The position numbers were made by a program, and so were the translations under genes. Of a stretch of DNA of 64,000 nucleotides, positions 1 to 8,624 are shown piece by piece; the first letter of the stretch is position 1; the number at the start of each line of letters is the position of its first letter. The stretch lies in contig JALHOC010000003.1 in the NCBI GenBank assembly GCA_022843225.1, forward strand, positions 48,290-112,289, given 5' to 3'. The stretch comes from Hyphomonadaceae bacterium (GTDB lineage Bacteria; Pseudomonadota; Alphaproteobacteria; Caulobacterales; Aquidulcibacteraceae). Below the pieces are notes generated by a model. The model did not search any database. It had not been told where the DNA came from and saw only the letters and a program-made list of their open reading frames with translations.

Positions 1-1
1 G

Positions 2-163
2 TTCCTGTTTCTCGAAACTGATGATTTCGATGAAACGTATGCGCGCTATGTGAAGGCGAACGTTCGCTTCATCGAAGCGCCGCGCAACGAAGTCTTTGGT
101 AAGGTCGTCGTATTCGAGGATCTCTATGGCAATCGCTGGGATCTGGTCGAGCGGCGTCAGTAA
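2..163 (+). CDS. VOC/glyoxalase family protein, 3' end (truncated by window edge)
   Basis: Frame 2 reads [53 protein letters not shown]; F-x-D-x-x-G-N-x-W-x-L is the VOC C-terminal motif. Confidence 0.8.
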
Positions 164-891
164 TCGATACGCATCAGATATAGACCATCGGCCGGCGCAA
201 CAGGACCGCAACGCGCGCGATCCTTCGCCGCGAGCGCTGCGCCAACGTCATCGGCGGTCATCTTGCCTAGGCCAACCTCGACCAACGTTCCGAGCATTGA
301 ACGCACCTGACGATGCAGAAAGCTGCGCGCCTCGAACCAGAACAAAATTTCGCCTCCATCACGCAACACGTCGGCGCGATCGAGCGTCTTGAGCGGCGAT
401 TTCGCCTGGCAATGCGCATCGCGGAAGGTGGTGAAGTCATGATGGCCGATGAGCCGCGCCGCCCCCGCCGCCATCGCCTCGACATCGAGCGCGCGTGACA
501 CACGCCACGCCTTGCCGCGCTCCAGCGCCAACGGAGCGCGGCGATTGATGACCCGATAGAGATAGACGCGACGTAGGGCATCAAAGCGCGCGTGAAATTC
601 AGGCACGACCGCGCTTGCCTCCAACACGGAGATCGGATGCGGTCGGAGGTGCGCGTTCAAGCCATCCGCCAGCCGCTGCGGCTCGAACAGCTTCTCGATG
701 TCGACATGTGCGACCTGCCCGCGCGCATGCACGCCCGCATCGGTGCGCCCCGCCCCCATCACATCGGCGCGCACGCCGGTGAGTTTCTCGACCGCGTCTT
801 CAAGCGCGCCTTGAACGCTCGCGTGCTCCGGCAAACGCTGCCAGCCCTGAAACGGGCCGCCGTCATATTCGATCGTGAGCTTAAAGCGCAT
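157..891 (-). CDS. truA: tRNA pseudouridine(38-40) synthase
   Basis: [29 protein letters not shown] (catalytic Asp), FLHRQVRSM; ATG at 891 overlaps the upstream stop. Confidence 0.97.
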
Positions 892-1460
892 TACCCGCGC
901 CGATACTCCAGCATCGTGCACGCGCGCGCATCGCCCGCGCCGGGCGCGCCGCCACTCACACCGAGCACTTTGAGCGCCGCATCGCTTGGAGCGGCGGGCT
1001 CCCATACGACGAGATACGCTGTCGCGCCCGCTCCACAGAGGCCTTGGCCGCTTTGCGGTTTGGTTTCGTTCGACACGCGATAGACCAGCACTTGCGGCTC
1101 TTCGACCGGCAAGTTCAGGAGCGCGCGCAGCGTTTGTCCTTGCACCTGCGTGGCGGGGGAAACCACGCTCGTCACCTGCGCTTCGACGATAACGCCATTG
1201 GCGCCGCGCAAGCTCAGCACTTCCTGCGCATCGGCGCCGGATTGGCTTGCATCGGGCAACCGCAGCGACGTCGACACCGTGAGATCGCCGGTGGTTGCGC
1301 GCGAGGAATCGCTCGCGGCCGCAAACGCGCGCGACGGCTCGGATTCCGGCGCTGGCGCATCGAGTTGCGCAGACGCGTTCTCAGCTTCCGTCGACGCGTT
1401 TTGCTGGCCGCACGCCGCCAAGCCCACAAGGAGCGCGGCTAAGAGCGATCTGAGTTTCAT
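891..1460 (-). CDS. Hypothetical lipoprotein
   Basis: Signal peptide with lipobox LAAC; translationally coupled to truA. Confidence 0.8.
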
Positions 1461-1503
1461 AACACTTCCTTTGCTTCACGCTTACCGCCTTAAGCCGGAC
1501 GCA

Positions 1504-2430
1504 TCAAACGCAAGCCCACCCCAAACGTTGCCCGGCGGACACAGGTTGGCCCCGGAGAAACGCCTCCGCGACCATCGGCCCCCGCCCCTCTCGCTGTACA
1601 ATGAGCAAGCGCACCGCGCCCTGGCCGCAGGCGATCAGAAGCTCGTCGTCGAGCGCTTCGCCAGGCGCGCCGTCGCCCTGTCCTAGGCGCGACATCAGCA
1701 CCTTGATGCGGGCGCCGTTGAGCTCAAACCAGGCGCCGGGGTGAGGTGAAAGGCCTCGGATTGCGCAATCGACCTCGCGCGCCGGTCGCGTCCAATCGAT
1801 GCGCGTTTCCGCCGACGTAATCTTGTGCGCGTAAGTGACGCCACTTTCGCTTTGAGGCGTCTCTATTGCCTCGCCTCGCTCAACGCTCTTCAGCGCATCC
1901 ACGAGAAGCCCAGCGCCAAGCACCGCCAATCGATCATGCAAAGTCGATGAAGTGTCGTCGAAGTCGATGGGGGTTTCCGCGCTCCCGAGAACCGGGCCAG
2001 TATCGAGCCCTTCCTCCATGCGCATAACCTGGACGCCGGTGACATGATCGCCCGCCATGATCGCGCGTTGGATGGGCGCGGCGCCGCGCCAACGCGGCAG
2101 AAGCGAGCCATGGAGATTGAACGCGCCAAGGCGCGGCGCATCGAGGATCGCTTTCGGCAGAATGAGCCCGTACGCGACGACAATCGCCGCGTCGAGATCA
2201 AGCGCCGCGAACGCCGCCTGCTCATCGGTCTTCTTGAGGCTCTTCGGCGTGCGCAACGGCAAGCCGTGCGCAACGGCGAACGCGTGCACTAGCGTCATGC
2301 GCTCTTGCTTGCCACGCCCGGCCGGTCTGGGCGGTTGCGAATAGACGCAGGCGATCTCGTGCCCCGCCTCGATCAGGGCTTCCAACGCCGGCAACGCGAA
2401 GGCCGGCGAGCCCATGAAGGCGAGGCGCAT
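1504..2430 (-). CDS. fmt: Methionyl-tRNA formyltransferase
   Basis: [37 protein letters not shown]. Confidence 0.97.
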
Positions 2431-2440
2431 CGGGGCGTGT

Positions 2441-3133
2441 TTAGTGCAAGCCCGTCTCGCGTTGCATGCCGGTCAAGAAGCCGCGCAGCGCATCGGCGAG
2501 TTCGCACGCGGCGGCGTGCGCTTCGGCGCGATCGGCTTCCGGCAACGCATCGAGCAATTCACGGCACACGTCCGCGTGCTCAAGATCGGCGACTTCGTGC
2601 ACCTCGAAGAATTTAAGCGTGGCGGGCTGGCCCGCATCATAGCGCTCGACGAGGCCCTTGATCTTGGTCTTGGCGACTGCAGGCAATTGGCTTTCGTAAG
2701 CATAAAGCGCGCCCAAGCCCGACGCATATGAGTGCCGCGCGAGACGGCGGAAGGTCTCGACCAGGCGCGTCGTTTCCGGATTGAGGCGCACCGCGCGCAC
2801 ATCGTCCTCGTCGGCGCCCATGCCAGCGGCGAAGCCAAGCCACAGGCGCGCGTGATCGTCCTTGCCCGCGCCAATACCTTCTTCCTCGGCGAGGTTCTCG
2901 GCGAGCAGCTTGCGGCCCTTCGCATCGGGGCAATTGGCGTGCACCGCGCTCACCGCGCGCGGGAAGGCTTCAACGTGATGGAAGTATTGCTTGGCGTAAG
3001 CCTTGAGCGCATCGCGCGTCAGCCGGCCCTCTTCCCAAGCCTGATAGAAGGGGTGCGTCAGCATCGCGCGCTCAGCTACGGCCGCGTCGATCGCCGCTGA
3101 CGTGCAAACAAAACCACCAAAAGCTTCGCTCAT
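2441..3133 (-). CDS. CADD/CT610-like heme-oxygenase-like dimetal oxidase (TenA/PqqC superfamily), candidate pABA synthase
   Basis: [29 protein letters not shown]....K, H..AD..H match the CADD pattern. Confidence 0.85.
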
Positions 3134-3222
3134 CGTTATCCCCTACCGGAAGGCAGCGCCTCACCGCGCCGCCGAATTCGCCCCGAACATAGCGTCTTCT
3201 CGCGCCCGCGAAAGGGGGGCGC

Positions 3223-4056
3223 CTAGTGCGCGGCCAGCACCGGCACGCCGGTGGCCCGGAGCACGCGGGCCGTAGCCCCGCCCAGGATCAGCTGCGACAG
3301 GCCCCGCCGCCCCAGCGCCCCCATCACAATCAGGTCGCTGCGGTGAGTGTCGGCGGCGTCGAGGATGGCCGCCGCCGCGCTGGCGTCAGGGGTGTCATGG
3401 CCTAGCACGTCAACACTCTTGGCGTGCCGGCGCAGATACTCAGCGATGTCGAGGCCAGGGGCCGAAACGATCGAGGGCATGGCTTCGCGCATCCGCCCTT
3501 GGAGCACCGCCACGCTCTCGGCGACCTCGATCAACGGCATGGCGGCATGCAAGGCGCGCGTGGCTTCGCGGCTGCCGTTCCATGCCACCAAAATGCGCGT
3601 AAACGCCGCTTCGTGACGCCCATGGCGCGGCACGATCAAAGTCGGGCGGCCGCAGTTGACCGCCGCCTCCTCCGCCGACGACCAGTTCTGATCGTCGCTT
3701 GACTCGTCGGTCTGCTCAACGACGACAAGATCGTGGAAGCGGCCATAGAGGCTGATCAGTTCGTTGGAGCGCCCTTCCGCCGCAACGAAAGCGCCGTGAA
3801 CGCCGCGCTTCAGAATCGCCGCCTCGAACCGCGCCCTCATCGCCGCCGAAGCGGCGTCGGCATCGGCTTGGACCTTGGCGATGATATCGGCGCCGCCCGC
3901 TGGCGCGCCTGTCAAAAGCTTGAGGATGGCGAGGTTCTGCTCGGCAAACAGCCCGGTCAGATAAGCGCGCGACCGCGCCGCCAGCGCGATCGCCGCATCA
4001 ATGTGGGGCGACCACTCCTCGTAGGATTTCAAATGGACCAGTATGTCGCGGTACAT
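3223..4056 (-). CDS. Universal stress protein (tandem USP domains)
   Basis: YRDILVHL, GRPTLIVP, ILVAWNGSREATRAL, DLIVMGALG..GGATARVL..GVPVL. Confidence 0.92.
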   Translation of the reverse strand: MYRDILVHLKSYEEWSPHIDAAIALAARSRAYLTGLFAEQNLAILKLLTGAPAGGADIIAKVQADADAASAAMRARFEAAILKRGVHGAFVAAEGRSNELISLYGRFHDLVVVEQTDESSDDQNWSSAEEAAVNCGRPTLIVPRHGRHEAAFTRILVAWNGSREATRALHAAMPLIEVAESVAVLQGRMREAMPSIVSAPGLDIAEYLRRHAKSVDVLGHDTPDASAAAAILDAADTHRSDLIVMGALGRRGLSQLILGGATARVLRATGVPVLAAH

Positions 4057-4133
4057 CGGGCGTCTCCCATGAATTCGCCGCGATCATGCCGCCTGCGCTG
4101 GGAAACACGAATGCGATCGATCAATTCCTGGGA

Positions 4134-4655
4134 TTAAGCCAGCGCGGCTTCCTTGCGCGCCTTCTTTAGCTTGCGCAGGGCGTTCTCGCGCTTCAGCCGC
4201 GAGAGATGGTCGATGAATAGCACGCCTTCCAGATGGTCCATCTCGTGCTGGATGCAGACCGCGAACAGGCCCTCGGCGTCCTCTTCGATCTCTGCGCCAT
4301 GATAGTTCAGATAGCGCAGTTTCACGCGCGCGGGCCGCTCTATCTCGTCATAGATTTCCGGAACCGAGAGACAGCCCTCCTCGTAAGGCGCGGTCTCCTC
4401 GGAAGCCCAGAGGATTTCGGGGTTCACGAAATAGCGCGGGGCCTTGTCCTCGCCGTCGCGAGAAATATCCATCACGATGATCCGCAGCGGCTCGCCGATC
4501 TGGATGGCCGCGAGCCCAATGCCGGGTGCCGCGTACATCGTCTCCAGCATGTCATCCATGAGCGCGCGGTGCGCATCCGTCACCCCGCCCTCGACGGGCT
4601 TGGATTTCTGCTTCAGACGGATGTCCGGCGCGGTCAGGATATCGCGGATAGCCAT
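4134..4655 (-). CDS. def: Peptide deformylase
   Basis: [22 protein letters not shown]. Confidence 0.98.
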
Positions 4656-4704
4656 ACGCTTTCAGGTATTGAGCGGCGGGGCGAGCGTCAAGGAACAGGG
4701 GTGG

Positions 4705-5217
4705 ATGGCAGCCATGAACGCACGGATTTTGTTCAAGCTTTCCGGCGGCGCGGCGCTGATGGGCGGGCTCATGCGGATGGTGTCGGCCACGCCCTTGCCG
4801 CTCGCCGCCGCCGAGCAAGAGGCGCTATGGACAACCACCGACGTCTTCCTCAGCCTCGGCTTGATCGGGATTTACCTCGCCCGAGCGGAGAAACTTGGGC
4901 TGCTGGGGCTCGCGGGTTTTGCACTCTCGATGGCCGCGCTCTCCTTCATCGGTGGGCCGGACGCGGACGTTTTTGGTTTCTCCACCTATGAGCAAGGCGC
5001 CGCAGCGTTGGCGATTTCGCTTGTCGGCCTTTCCCTCGCCTGGCTGCGCGCAGGCGAGCGCCCTTGGGGGCCGCCGCTTTTGTGGTTTGGGTCCGTGATC
5101 GCCGCCGGAGTGCTCGGCATGTTGCCCGCGCCCCTGCCCGAGTACGGCTTCGCGGCGGCGGGCGCGCTGTTCGGCGCGGCGTTCGCCTGGGCGGGCATCG
5201 ACCTCATCCGCCGCTGA
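4705..5217 (+). CDS. Hypothetical integral membrane protein (about 5-6 TM)
   Basis: Hydrophobic ORF after purine-rich SD; start 4705 or 4714. Confidence 0.7.
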   Translation: MAAMNARILFKLSGGAALMGGLMRMVSATPLPLAAAEQEALWTTTDVFLSLGLIGIYLARAEKLGLLGLAGFALSMAALSFIGGPDADVFGFSTYEQGAAALAISLVGLSLAWLRAGERPWGPPLLWFGSVIAAGVLGMLPAPLPEYGFAAAGALFGAAFAWAGIDLIRR

Positions 5218-5260
5218 GCCCTTGCGGGCGGCCGCGCAAGCGGCGATATGAGCGCCGCAG

Positions 5261-5349
5261 GCAGGCGGCGGACGGTCGCCCCGCCAACCCGGTCAGATCC
5301 GGAAGGAAGCAGCCGTAACGGGTTGCGTACGGGTCGCCGTTCTGTCTGC
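5261..5349 (+). ncRNA. ffs: SRP RNA (4.5S, small bacterial type)
   Basis: CCAACCCGGTCAGATCCGGAAGGAAGCAGCCGTAACG core with GGAA tetraloop; ends GCAGGCGG/CTGTCTGC pair; lies upstream of dnaX as usual. Confidence 0.92.
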
Positions 5350-5351
5350 AC

Positions 5352-6779
5352 TCACGCTGCGGCTTGATCTTCCAGATCCAGATCGACGGCGCGCTCGGGC
5401 AGGATCAGCGTAAAGCGCGAGCCTTTGCCGAGTTCGCTCTCAACGGTGACGTCGCCGCCCATCAGCCGCGCGAAGCGGCGTGTGATCGACAGCCCCAACC
5501 CGGTGCCGCCATACGCGCGCGTGATCGATGCGTCCGCTTGCGCGAACGGTTGAAACAACCGCGTCAGCGTTTCGGCGCTGATGCCGATGCCGGTGTCGCG
5601 CACGTCAAACGCAAGGGCCGGCGCGTTGTCCCAGGTCGTCCGGCGCACATGAAAAACGATACGTCCGTTGTGCGTGAACTTCGCAGCGTTCGACGCCAGG
5701 TTCATCAAGCATTGCTTCACGCGCAACGGGTCAGCGGAAAAATGCTCGGCGCCGGGTTCTATCAGAAGATCGCACGCCGTGCCGTTTTCCGCCGCCATCG
5801 GCGTGACCGTTTCTATGACGGAGGTCGCCAATTCGCGCGCATCGATCGCCTCGGGACGCAAGACGACCTTTTCGGCTTCGACTTTCGACAAATCCAGAAC
5901 ATCGGCGATCAGTCCCAAGAGATGTATCGCCGATGAACGAACGCGTGCCGCGTGTTGGCCGCATTCCGACACATCGCCTGCTTCGACATCCTCCTGAATG
6001 ATCTCGGAATAACCGATCACGGCGTTGAGCGGCGTGCGCAATTCGTGGCTCATGTTCGCCAAGAACAGGGATTTGGCCTTGTTCGCCGCTTCCGCTGTGC
6101 GTAGCGCTTCCATGGTTTCCGCGGTACGCTCCACGACACGCCGTTCAAGTAAAAGCGCCGCGCTTTCAGCCTCCAGCCGCGCGGCGACCGTGTCAGCGAA
6201 CACCTTTGCGCCAGCACGCGCCATCACGATAGCGTTCACAAGGGTGAGCACTGCCAGCACCCCAATGCCCAGTGCGCCGCCAAAAGACGCGCCAACGACC
6301 CCCGCGCTGGCGACAAGCGCGATCGCCATTGGCGGCAGCGTGTAAAAGATCATCGTCTTGGTCATGACGTGCTGACTTGTCATGATCACGATAGCGCCCG
6401 CAGCGAACAGCAGCGCCACCAGCGGGCCAGGATTCGGTGCAAACACCAGCGCCAGATAGGGTGCCGCGTACGCTGTCACGACCGCTACAATACGCAACAC
6501 CAACTGAGTTTGAACGCGCTTTAAGGCGTCAAGGGGCAGTTGATCGAGTTGTCCATCCACACGCCGCAACCAGTTTACCGCCCAGACATCAATCGCGACG
6601 GCCAAGGCAGCACATGCCAGACCGAATATCCCCCACCAGCCGGGCACAAGAAACAGGGTCACGAGCGGGATCATTGCCGCCGACGCGTACCGCGTCGCGC
6701 CGTGGCGTTGCCACGCAATCTCGTGAAACCGGCGGATCGCCAGCACGCGGCCCCTGGTTTCGTTCGCGACTGCGTCCAT
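5352..6779 (-). CDS. Membrane-bound sensor histidine kinase (HisKA plus HATPase_c, no receiver)
   Basis: FLANMSHELRTPLNAVIGYSE, NLASNAAKFT, DTGIG, GGTGLGL; N-terminal TM helices; ATG 6779 with SD GGGGAAGG. Confidence 0.93.
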   Translation of the reverse strand: MDAVANETRGRVLAIRRFHEIAWQRHGATRYASAAMIPLVTLFLVPGWWGIFGLACAALAVAIDVWAVNWLRRVDGQLDQLPLDALKRVQTQLVLRIVAVVTAYAAPYLALVFAPNPGPLVALLFAAGAIVIMTSQHVMTKTMIFYTLPPMAIALVASAGVVGASFGGALGIGVLAVLTLVNAIVMARAGAKVFADTVAARLEAESAALLLERRVVERTAETMEALRTAEAANKAKSLFLANMSHELRTPLNAVIGYSEIIQEDVEAGDVSECGQHAARVRSSAIHLLGLIADVLDLSKVEAEKVVLRPEAIDARELATSVIETVTPMAAENGTACDLLIEPGAEHFSADPLRVKQCLMNLASNAAKFTHNGRIVFHVRRTTWDNAPALAFDVRDTGIGISAETLTRLFQPFAQADASITRAYGGTGLGLSITRRFARLMGGDVTVESELGKGSRFTLILPERAVDLDLEDQAAA

Positions 6780-6881
6780 ATGGGCACCTTCCCCGTATGT
6801 ACCCTTTTTGCCGCACCCAACATTAATGTTCTGCTTCCAGGAACCTCGCCCAAGGCCGATCAAAGGTCTAAATGACCTTCG

Positions 6882-8624
6882 ATGAGCGATGACTCGGTCC
6901 CTGGCCTGTTTGCCGACGCACCTGCTGGAGGCGGCTACCTGGTGCTTGCCCGCAAGTACCGGCCAAGGACGTTTGCTGACCTGATCGGTCAGGAAGCCAT
7001 GGTGCGCACGATCGCCAACTCTTTCGCGCTCAATCGGATCGCACACGCAACTATGCTGACCGGGGTCCGTGGGGTAGGCAAGACAACCACCGCGCGGCTC
7101 TTGGCGCGGGCGCTGAACTACCGCCGCGGCGACGTCGATGCGCCAACCATCGACCTCGATCCCCCGGGCGAGCATTGCCAAGCGATCATGGAAAGCCGCC
7201 ATCCCGACGTGTTCGAGATGGATGCGGCCTCGCGCACCGGCATCAACGACATTCGCGAAATCCTGGACTCGGTCCGCTACGCGCCGGTGATGGCGCGCTA
7301 CAAGCTTTACATCATCGATGAAGTCCACATGCTCTCGACGCAGGCCTTCAATGGTCTGCTGAAAACGCTCGAAGAGCCGCCGCCGCATGTGAAGTTCATT
7401 TTCGCCACCACCGAAATTCGCAAAGTGCCGGTGACCGTGCTGTCGCGGTGCCAACGCTTTGATTTGAAGCGCATCGATAGCGAACGGCTGGCCGAGCATC
7501 TCGCGAACATTTGCGCGAAGGAAGGCGTGAAGGTCGATGCCGATGCTTTGGCCTTGATCGCACGCGCGGCGGAGGGTTCGGCGCGCGACGGGCTCTCGCT
7601 GCTGGATCAAGCGCTTGTACAAAAGCCCGGCGCCAGCGTTGGCGCCGCCGATGTGCGTGACATGCTGGGCTTGGCCGATCGCGCGCGCGTGCTCGACCTG
7701 TTCGACGCTATCGCCAAGGGCGACGCGAAGACGGCGCTCACCGAAGCACGTTCCCAATACGACAGCGGCGCCGATCCTGCGCTGATCCTGCGCGATCTGC
7801 TCGACATCGGCCACGAAACCGCGCGCGCGCAGGCGCTGGGCGCGGACGCGCGGCTGCTTGGCGGCGCGGACTGGATCGCGCGCGTGCGGGGCTTGGCGTC
7901 GAGCGTCTCCCCCGCGCAGCTCTCCCGGCTCTGGCAGATGCTGCTGAAAGCGCTCGATGAAGCTGGCAAAGCCCCGGACCCCATCGCGGCGCTGGAGATG
8001 GCCCTCGTGCGCCTGTGCGCGGCACAGAATCTGCCCCCGCCTGAGGACGCCGCGCGGTTGCTCAAAGATGGATCGCCAGCGTCCAGCCCGCAACCACACC
8101 AAGAAACCCGGCAGGATGCTGGCGGCCCCAGAGCTGAGCAGGCGCCGGTCAGCGCCCCGGATGCAGGCGCCCCTTCTTTCGGCAACTTCGAGGATGTGAT
8201 CCGCGCCGTCGCTGAGGAACGCGACATCGAATTGGAACTGGCGCTCGATCGCTTGAAGGTGACGCGCTTCTCGGCCGAGGGCGAGATCGTGTTCATCGCC
8301 AATCCCGCGCAACCGCGCGATCTCGTGCGTCGCCTGAAAGCATTCCTCGAAGAGCGCACGCCATTTGAATGGCGCATCCGCTCAACGGAAGAATCCACCG
8401 CGCCGGTGGAAAGCCTCGAAGAGCGTCGCAAACGCGAACGTGAGCGCGAAATGGAAGAGCTCAAGCGCCAGCCCTTCGTCGCCGAAGCGCTGAAGGCGTT
8501 TCCCGATGCGCAGATCACCGCCGTGCGCGCGCCTGTTGAAGACCCGCGCGGCGATGTCGTGCCGATGCCGCAAGCAGCGAAGCCTACACCGGCGCCAGGA
8601 CGCAAGAAAGAAGCGGACCGATGA
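6882..8624 (+). CDS. dnaX: DNA polymerase III subunit gamma/tau
   Basis: LARKYRP, GVRGVGKTT, DEVHMLS, TVLSRCQRF. Confidence 0.97.
   Translation: MSDDSVPGLFADAPAGGGYLVLARKYRPRTFADLIGQEAMVRTIANSFALNRIAHATMLTGVRGVGKTTTARLLARALNYRRGDVDAPTIDLDPPGEHCQAIMESRHPDVFEMDAASRTGINDIREILDSVRYAPVMARYKLYIIDEVHMLSTQAFNGLLKTLEEPPPHVKFIFATTEIRKVPVTVLSRCQRFDLKRIDSERLAEHLANICAKEGVKVDADALALIARAAEGSARDGLSLLDQALVQKPGASVGAADVRDMLGLADRARVLDLFDAIAKGDAKTALTEARSQYDSGADPALILRDLLDIGHETARAQALGADARLLGGADWIARVRGLASSVSPAQLSRLWQMLLKALDEAGKAPDPIAALEMALVRLCAAQNLPPPEDAARLLKDGSPASSPQPHQETRQDAGGPRAEQAPVSAPDAGAPSFGNFEDVIRAVAEERDIELELALDRLKVTRFSAEGEIVFIANPAQPRDLVRRLKAFLEERTPFEWRIRSTEESTAPVESLEERRKREREREMEELKRQPFVAEALKAFPDAQITAVRAPVEDPRGDVVPMPQAAKPTPAPGRKKEADR

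Follow-up and report, generated by a model that had tools for sequence, protein, structure and literature searches.

The window analysed here, a stretch of 64,000 nucleotides from a soil Caulobacterales bacterium, contains a minus-strand gene for a haem-oxygenase-like protein directly upstream of fmt. This raises two questions: whether the protein is a CADD-type enzyme that makes 4-aminobenzoate (pABA) from its own residues, as the original prediction proposed, and what its position beside fmt means. We consider it very likely that the gene (2441-3133, minus strand; an intact ORF of 230 aa) encodes a functional CADD/PabS-family self-sacrificing 4-aminobenzoate synthase, that this enzyme is the organism's only pABA route, and that it lies within the ancestral def-fmt operon, probably co-transcribed with fmt. 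Its catalysis, co-transcription and metal preference are properties that we infer.

Family, fold and catalytic residues

We compared the protein with NCBIfam and observed a match to the CADD model TIGR04305 at 251.6 bits (cut-off 200), with the next model, PqqC TIGR02111, at 49.4 bits (cut-off 240). Pfam placed it at superfamily level only, through Haem_oxygenas_2 and TENA/THI-4/PQQC (PF03070, 78 bits). Among solved structures, HMMER ranked CT610 (1rcw) first, with an E-value of 4.5e-42 and 38% identity over 202 aligned residues. Further PDB sequence matches were the CtCADD entries deposited under the name 4-aminobenzoate synthase, such as 8va9, and a second 4-aminobenzoate synthase, 9pj4 (E 1.3e-39; its numbering is the published NePabS numbering plus 21, PMC11965152), and PqqC came next at about 1e-10. 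An AlphaFold2 model, computed from a six-sequence alignment (mean pLDDT 91.7, pTM 0.88), was nearest to the PDB folds 1rcw, 8vag and 8va9, with TM scores of 0.86-0.94, an RMSD of 1.5 Å and 36-37% identity. The folds of PqqC, UndA, BesC and TenA trailed CtCADD, at 13-21% identity to the model. By family score and nearest solved structure, the protein thus clusters with CADD and not with PqqC or TenA, as had been predicted.

In CtCADD, the cleavage of Tyr27 and the role of Lys152 are established (PMC9522330), and the functional residues of NePabS are Tyr25, Lys159, Tyr41, Tyr45 and Trp99 (PMC11965152). The HMMER alignment pairs the sacrificial tyrosine with Y30 (CT610 Y27, NePabS Y25) and the amine-donor lysine with K157 (CT610 K152, NePabS K159), so that both residues align to both solved enzymes, CT610 and NE1434. 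The dimetal ligands E84, H94, E147, H179, D183 and H186 correspond to CT610 E81, H88, E142, H174, D178 and H181, and the relay aromatics Y46 and Y50 to Y43 and Y47 (Y41 and Y45 in NePabS). W98 is the equivalent of NePabS W99, Y146 that of CADD Y141, and F175 replaces CT610 Y170. Every CT610 equivalence that had originally been proposed is correct, the F175 substitution included. All 13 functional positions were invariant in 109 clade homologues, a set drawn from related loci that includes some genomes fetched twice.

We weighed the alternative that the protein is PqqC, a PQQ synthase, or a TenA-type thiaminase, and give it next to no credence. JGI names dozens of homologues with 80-90% identity "pyrroloquinoline-quinone synthase", PF03070 is matched, and PqqC is the second-best fold match. 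However, PF03070 is a superfamily-level model that does not separate PqqC, TenA and CADD, and the PqqC and TenA structures reach 13-21% identity with an RMSD of at least 2.6 Å, compared to 36-37% and 1.5 Å for CtCADD. PqqC lacks dimetal ligands, and the protein has them. A PqqC identity was rejected on the TIGR02111 score, far below its cut-off, on the fold ranking and on the absence of any PqqE match in the genome. A TenA identity was rejected because no TenA model in NCBIfam matches and the TenA structures show 13-19% identity at an RMSD of 3-5 Å. NCBI names homologues of 80-85% identity "CADD family putative folate metabolism protein", and the JGI name on the CADD homologues looks like a misannotation, a widespread one, which the present assignment corrects.

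The public gene call for the protein (P0002) has 207 aa and starts at M24 (2441-3064). We favour the 230-aa start because the ATG at 3133 is preceded, at a distance of 5 nt, by a Shine-Dalgarno-like AGGGGA (3139-3144, minus strand), and because homologues of 230-231 aa align with the protein from residue 1. As read from the sequence, the public call is probably too short.

The pABA branch in the genome and in relatives

We searched the assembly (117 contigs, 2.86 Mb, 99.5% estimated completeness), which holds a single CADD gene, for the canonical pABA enzymes. The sole chorismate-utilising enzyme in the genome is TrpE (TIGR00564, 557 bits, above cut-off), and every PabB model stayed below its cut-off. 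Of its two class-IV aminotransferases, one is IlvE (NF005726, 488 bits) and the other a D-amino-acid transaminase (NF005209, 389 bits); PabC models reach 87-101 bits, where their cut-offs are 177-308. Both hidden candidates were rejected, PabB on the ground that the only chorismate-binding ORF is TrpE, and PabC on the ground that both aminotransferases pass the cut-offs of their own models and fall far under those of PabC. FolP (308 bits), FolK and FolC were found. The pABA-consuming folate enzymes are kept and the canonical pABA branch is gone, a signature also seen in Chlamydia and Nitrosomonas (PMC4161248). This gene content agrees with the predicted use of a non-canonical route, and because PabB and PabC are absent, CADD would be the organism's only source of pABA. 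No folate genes adjoin folP in this genome; its downstream co-directional neighbour, of 268 aa, resembles by eye a ThiD-type pyrimidine kinase.

Such a route would be expected to run as follows. The haem-oxygenase-like dimetal protein would activate O2, and the oxidising hole would be passed along Y146, W98, Y50 and Y46. The side chain of the protein's own Tyr30 would be cleaved and then aminated by the epsilon-amine of its own Lys157. One pABA would be released per polypeptide, feeding FolP as the sole supply of the organism. The in-vitro yields published for CADD/PabS enzymes fall below stoichiometry, and proposals of an activator or of a second function have been made (PMC11965152).

To compare CADD with PabB among relatives, we sampled 301 genomes across the order and scored TIGR00553 in 30 relatives with CADD and 22 without. 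CADD was above cut-off in 30 of the 301 genomes, 28 of them in the family of the window and spanning five genera. A second, PabB-like gene was missing from 28 of the 30 CADD carriers, which showed a TrpE-like match only, and was present in 21 of the 22 genomes lacking CADD (naive Fisher p=2.7e-11, a statistic that ignores phylogeny). An Fmt+TruA tree of 41 genomes (quick search, partly resolved) requires, by its starred branches, that the state changed independently at least four times. Across independent pairs, the change in PabB followed that in CADD in the same direction in none, took the opposite direction in about three and was nil in about one. Since four independent pairs do not allow a sign test to reach p<0.05, the anticorrelation is consistent in direction and not formally significant under phylogenetic control.

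The two routes are not strictly exclusive, because two genomes (G249 and G279) have both genes. The CADD of G249 is divergent, with 54% identity, and is located elsewhere. G279 keeps CADD in the def-fmt site beside its PabB-like genes and may be an intermediate in the replacement of CADD by PabB. The PabB-like genes above the TIGR00553 cut-off encode 622 and 639 aa in G279 and 622 and 800 aa in G104, and may be fusions. CADD and PabB have been exchanged repeatedly within one genus, and we found no prior description of this.

A different reading of these data makes the protein a dimetal oxidase of the CADD family with another or an additional role, the organism taking its pABA or folate from the surroundings. 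One genome, G059, has neither CADD nor PabB, so scavenging of pABA or folate is possible in the group, and the authors of the NePabS study themselves raise alternate functions and missing activators (PMC11965152). We nevertheless regard this reading as improbable: none of the 109 homologues departs from the sacrificial Tyr and Lys, the six ligands or the relay residues, FolK, FolP and FolC are retained and need pABA, and the reciprocal CADD/PabB pattern with repeated switches is what functional replacement would be expected to produce. A pABA synthase therefore remains the reading that we prefer.

Gene order around def and fmt

The gene is part of a co-directional run on the minus strand, def-usp-CADD-fmt-lipoprotein-truA. 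The run comprises def (4134-4655; peptide deformylase, 173 aa; TIGR00079, 164.6 bits), a universal stress protein gene (3223-4056; 277 aa; Pfam Usp, E 1e-11), the CADD gene, fmt (1504-2430; methionyl-tRNA formyltransferase, 308 aa; TIGR00460, 265.2 bits, cut-off 201.5; Pfam Formyl_trans_N and Formyl_trans_C), a putative lipoprotein gene (891-1460; 189 aa; N-terminal lipoprotein-type signal ...LVGLAAC) and truA (157-891; tRNA pseudouridine(38-40) synthase; TIGR00071, 183.5 bits), all on the minus strand. From def to truA, the intergenic gaps are 77, 89, 10, 43 and -1 bp. The CADD-fmt spacer is exactly 10 bp long (2431-2440, minus strand), as the CADD stop codon has its last base at 2441 and fmt begins at 2430. 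The originally reported spacing is exact and the def-fmt-truA setting is confirmed; the usp gene is an addition to them. The putative lipoprotein has only weak NCBIfam matches and no Pfam family, and its place between fmt and truA is kept throughout the clade. Its stop codon shares one base with the likely truA start, the ATG at 891; the listed truA ORF extends to 1005, and the TIGR00071 match begins at residue 40 of this long ORF.

A spacer of 10 bp leaves no room for a terminator or promoter, and from this spacing the CADD gene is probably on the same transcript as fmt. A terminator scan gave nothing at the CADD-fmt junction and terminator-like matches at chance level elsewhere. A sigma-70 promoter scan, which says little for a GC-rich alphaproteobacterium, detected none. 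Scanning positions 1-5400 of the window with Rfam, we found, ahead of the CADD gene, neither a folate riboswitch nor any other RNA element; the only hits were two sub-threshold sRNA matches inside usp and the bacterial small SRP RNA (ffs; 5256-5353, plus strand; RF00169, 59.3 bits, E 1.4e-11). Together, these scans weakly suggest that no riboswitch, promoter or terminator signal parts the CADD gene from its neighbours. The SRP RNA is upstream of dnaX (6882-8624), and a 986-aa ORF (5352-8312, minus strand) overlaps dnaX in antisense over more than 1.4 kb, its upstream part being probably spurious.

The arrangement of the family is def>CADD>fmt>lipoprotein>truA. No Usp homologue lies between def and CADD in about 60 related loci examined, and for this reason the usp gene looks, from these sequences, as if it had entered the operon recently. 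Scanning species-representative genomes gave 80 loci, of which 58 come from MAGs of the clade, mostly named Terricaulis, Vitreimonas, Hyphomonadaceae or Caulobacteraceae, and 22 from Sphingomonadales. The names Terricaulis, Vitreimonas and Hyphomonadaceae among relatives agree with placing the organism in Caulobacterales. In the clade, 52 of the 58 loci have def immediately upstream of CADD, and fmt is found downstream within the fetched locus in 48 of 58. The CADD-fmt gap is at most 224 bp in 22 of these 48, and in roughly 16-24 loci a single opposite-strand gene lies between the two. This intervening gene encodes a BrkB/YihY-family membrane protein (PF03631; about 320-390 aa, for example at L060:4705-5706 on the minus strand). 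A few genomes have inserts of 12-14 kb between CADD and fmt. In two genomes of the same genus, G079 (L009+L037) and G194 (L014+L038), these are extra genes; this island sits exactly at the CADD-fmt junction and includes an 861-aa protein and a Usp-like gene.

Congeners that have no CADD at the site retain the flanking genes: def directly adjoins fmt in G134, G179 and G249, and the order in the CADD-free G104 and G254 is def, BrkB-like gene, fmt. The difference in CADD is a clean presence or absence at one site within an otherwise universal def-fmt pair. In the 22 Sphingomonadales loci, CADD is 65-70% identical and follows mgtE and a DUF1489 gene. Among the carriers are MAGs of Sphingomicrobium and two isolates, Sphingomonas sediminicola DSM 18106 and S. 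daechungensis JCM 17887, whose homologues are 66-68% identical. Near these genes we found no def, fmt or folate genes, the neighbours being MgtE, DUF1489 and DUF2807. A DUF1489 gene of about 131-133 aa consistently precedes CADD in Sphingomicrobium and Sphingomonas (L109-L132), often after mgtE. Two CADD-positive genomes from other families of the order also have CADD unlinked to def and fmt. Since def and fmt are not near the Sphingomonadales CADD, the link to fmt is specific to one lineage: the synteny across relatives holds in the Terricaulis/Vitreimonas clade and is not seen in the other families or in Sphingomonadales.

This distribution bears on the meaning of the gene order. We lean towards the view that def-CADD-fmt is inherited history, in which the gene landed once between def and fmt in a Terricaulis/Vitreimonas ancestor, stayed there, and serves as a pABA synthase with no special link to formyl-Met metabolism. 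The linkage is restricted to one clade, with the 22 Sphingomonadales and two other-family genomes unlinked, the CADD-fmt junction is often broken by the BrkB/YihY-like gene or the 12-14 kb inserts, and in Chlamydia the gene is part of a folate operon (PMC4161248). Against this, def remains directly upstream in 52 of the 58 loci, the arrangement persists over at least five genera despite turnover of neighbouring genes, and Fmt is folate-dependent, which provides a loose functional rationale. Such a rationale would have the order be adaptive, with folate capacity tracking translation initiation. If true, one transcript would fix the ratio of pABA supply, at one per polypeptide, to the enzymes that start and stop formyl-Met, which draw on 10-formyl-THF, and folate capacity would follow initiation capacity without a dedicated regulator. 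We judge adaptive placement to be unlikely, and inheritance without special coupling to be the more likely explanation. A transcript shared with def and fmt would give steady housekeeping expression, which would suit an enzyme consumed stoichiometrically.

The CADD family, its self-sacrificial chemistry, the replacement of PabABC and its occurrence in a free-living proteobacterium are published (PMC4161248, PMC9522330, PMC11965152), and the novelty first claimed for this locus was to that extent overstated. The context itself is another matter: text searches of the literature found no mention of CADD with fmt or def, and PMC4161248 contains neither 'fmt' nor 'formyltransferase'. The conserved def-CADD-fmt arrangement therefore appears to be undescribed, as had been claimed, and lineage-specific. 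No new enzyme, pathway or mechanism is revealed; the analysis adds useful details on a known family. Among these is a clade of free-living, chorismate-competent alphaproteobacteria whose self-sacrificing and PabB routes have been swapped several times, including inside a single genus and at one unchanging chromosomal position. The clade offers a clean natural setting in which to ask under what conditions cells favour a stoichiometric "suicide" enzyme over catalysis by a pathway, and the two Sphingomonas isolates named above are cultured carriers.

The metal-selectivity pair and comparison with known enzymes

CADD Y141 and Y170 correspond to NePabS F148 and F177; in NePabS, the F148Y variant is cambialistic and F177Y shifts the preference from Fe/Fe to Mn/Fe (PMC11965152). 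The pair in the window protein, Tyr146/Phe175, is neither the Tyr/Tyr of CtCADD (Mn/Fe) nor the Phe/Phe of NePabS (Fe/Fe). As this is the pair of NePabS F148Y, the cofactor is predicted to be Fe/Fe or cambialistic and not the strict Mn/Fe of CtCADD.

To assess how common this pair is, we scanned 1.84 billion cluster representatives (50% clustering) with HMMER, which returned 1906 relatives at E≤1e-3, of which 137 reached E≤1e-30. From the 150 nearest representatives we retained the 96 that were full-length with Tyr30, Lys157 and the six ligands. In this sample, which is biased towards the query, the Y/F pair of the window protein was the commonest (63/96), followed by the Y/Y pair of CADD (23/96), with the F/F pair of NePabS seen once (1/96). 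The Y/F pair is common, and in the literature consulted the only form of it that has been studied is an engineered variant; we found no prior description of its natural prevalence. The Tyr/Phe aromatic pair is therefore a candidate natural metal-selectivity class. The related and stronger idea, that Tyr146/Phe175 marks a natural cambialistic Fe/Fe-Mn/Fe subtype, we hold with the same low expectation as an adaptive gene order.

Finally, we set the window protein against the known systems. PqqC and the haem-oxygenase-like dimetal oxidases UndA, BesC, FlcD and HrmI share the seven-helix haem-oxygenase-like fold (TM 0.7-0.84) at 15-21% identity, and they act on free substrates instead of their own residues. 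CtCADD (CT610 of Chlamydia trachomatis; 1RCW, 8VA9, 8VAG) has the same TIGR04305 family, fold, Tyr and Lys and six ligands, together with equivalents of Y46/Y50 (Y43/Y47) and Y146 (Y141), and both host genomes are without PabB and PabC. CtCADD uses Mn/Fe and has Y170 nearest the metals, whereas the window protein has Phe175 at that position and an insertion of three residues ahead of the His94 ligand. The Chlamydia gene lies in a folB-folKP-folA-folC2 operon (PMC4161248), in contrast to the window gene between def and fmt, and the window host, unlike Chlamydia, is a free-living soil/water bacterium with an intact chorismate/Trp pathway. For NePabS (NE1434 of Nitrosomonas europaea, Fe/Fe), the window protein has equivalents of Tyr25, Lys159, Tyr41, Tyr45 and Trp99. 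It shares with NePabS the Phe at the F177 position and a free-living proteobacterial host without pabABC, but it does not have the 9-residue loop insertion that NePabS carries after the first long helix. With Tyr146 in place of NePabS F148, the window protein has by nature the pair that was engineered into the cambialistic F148Y.
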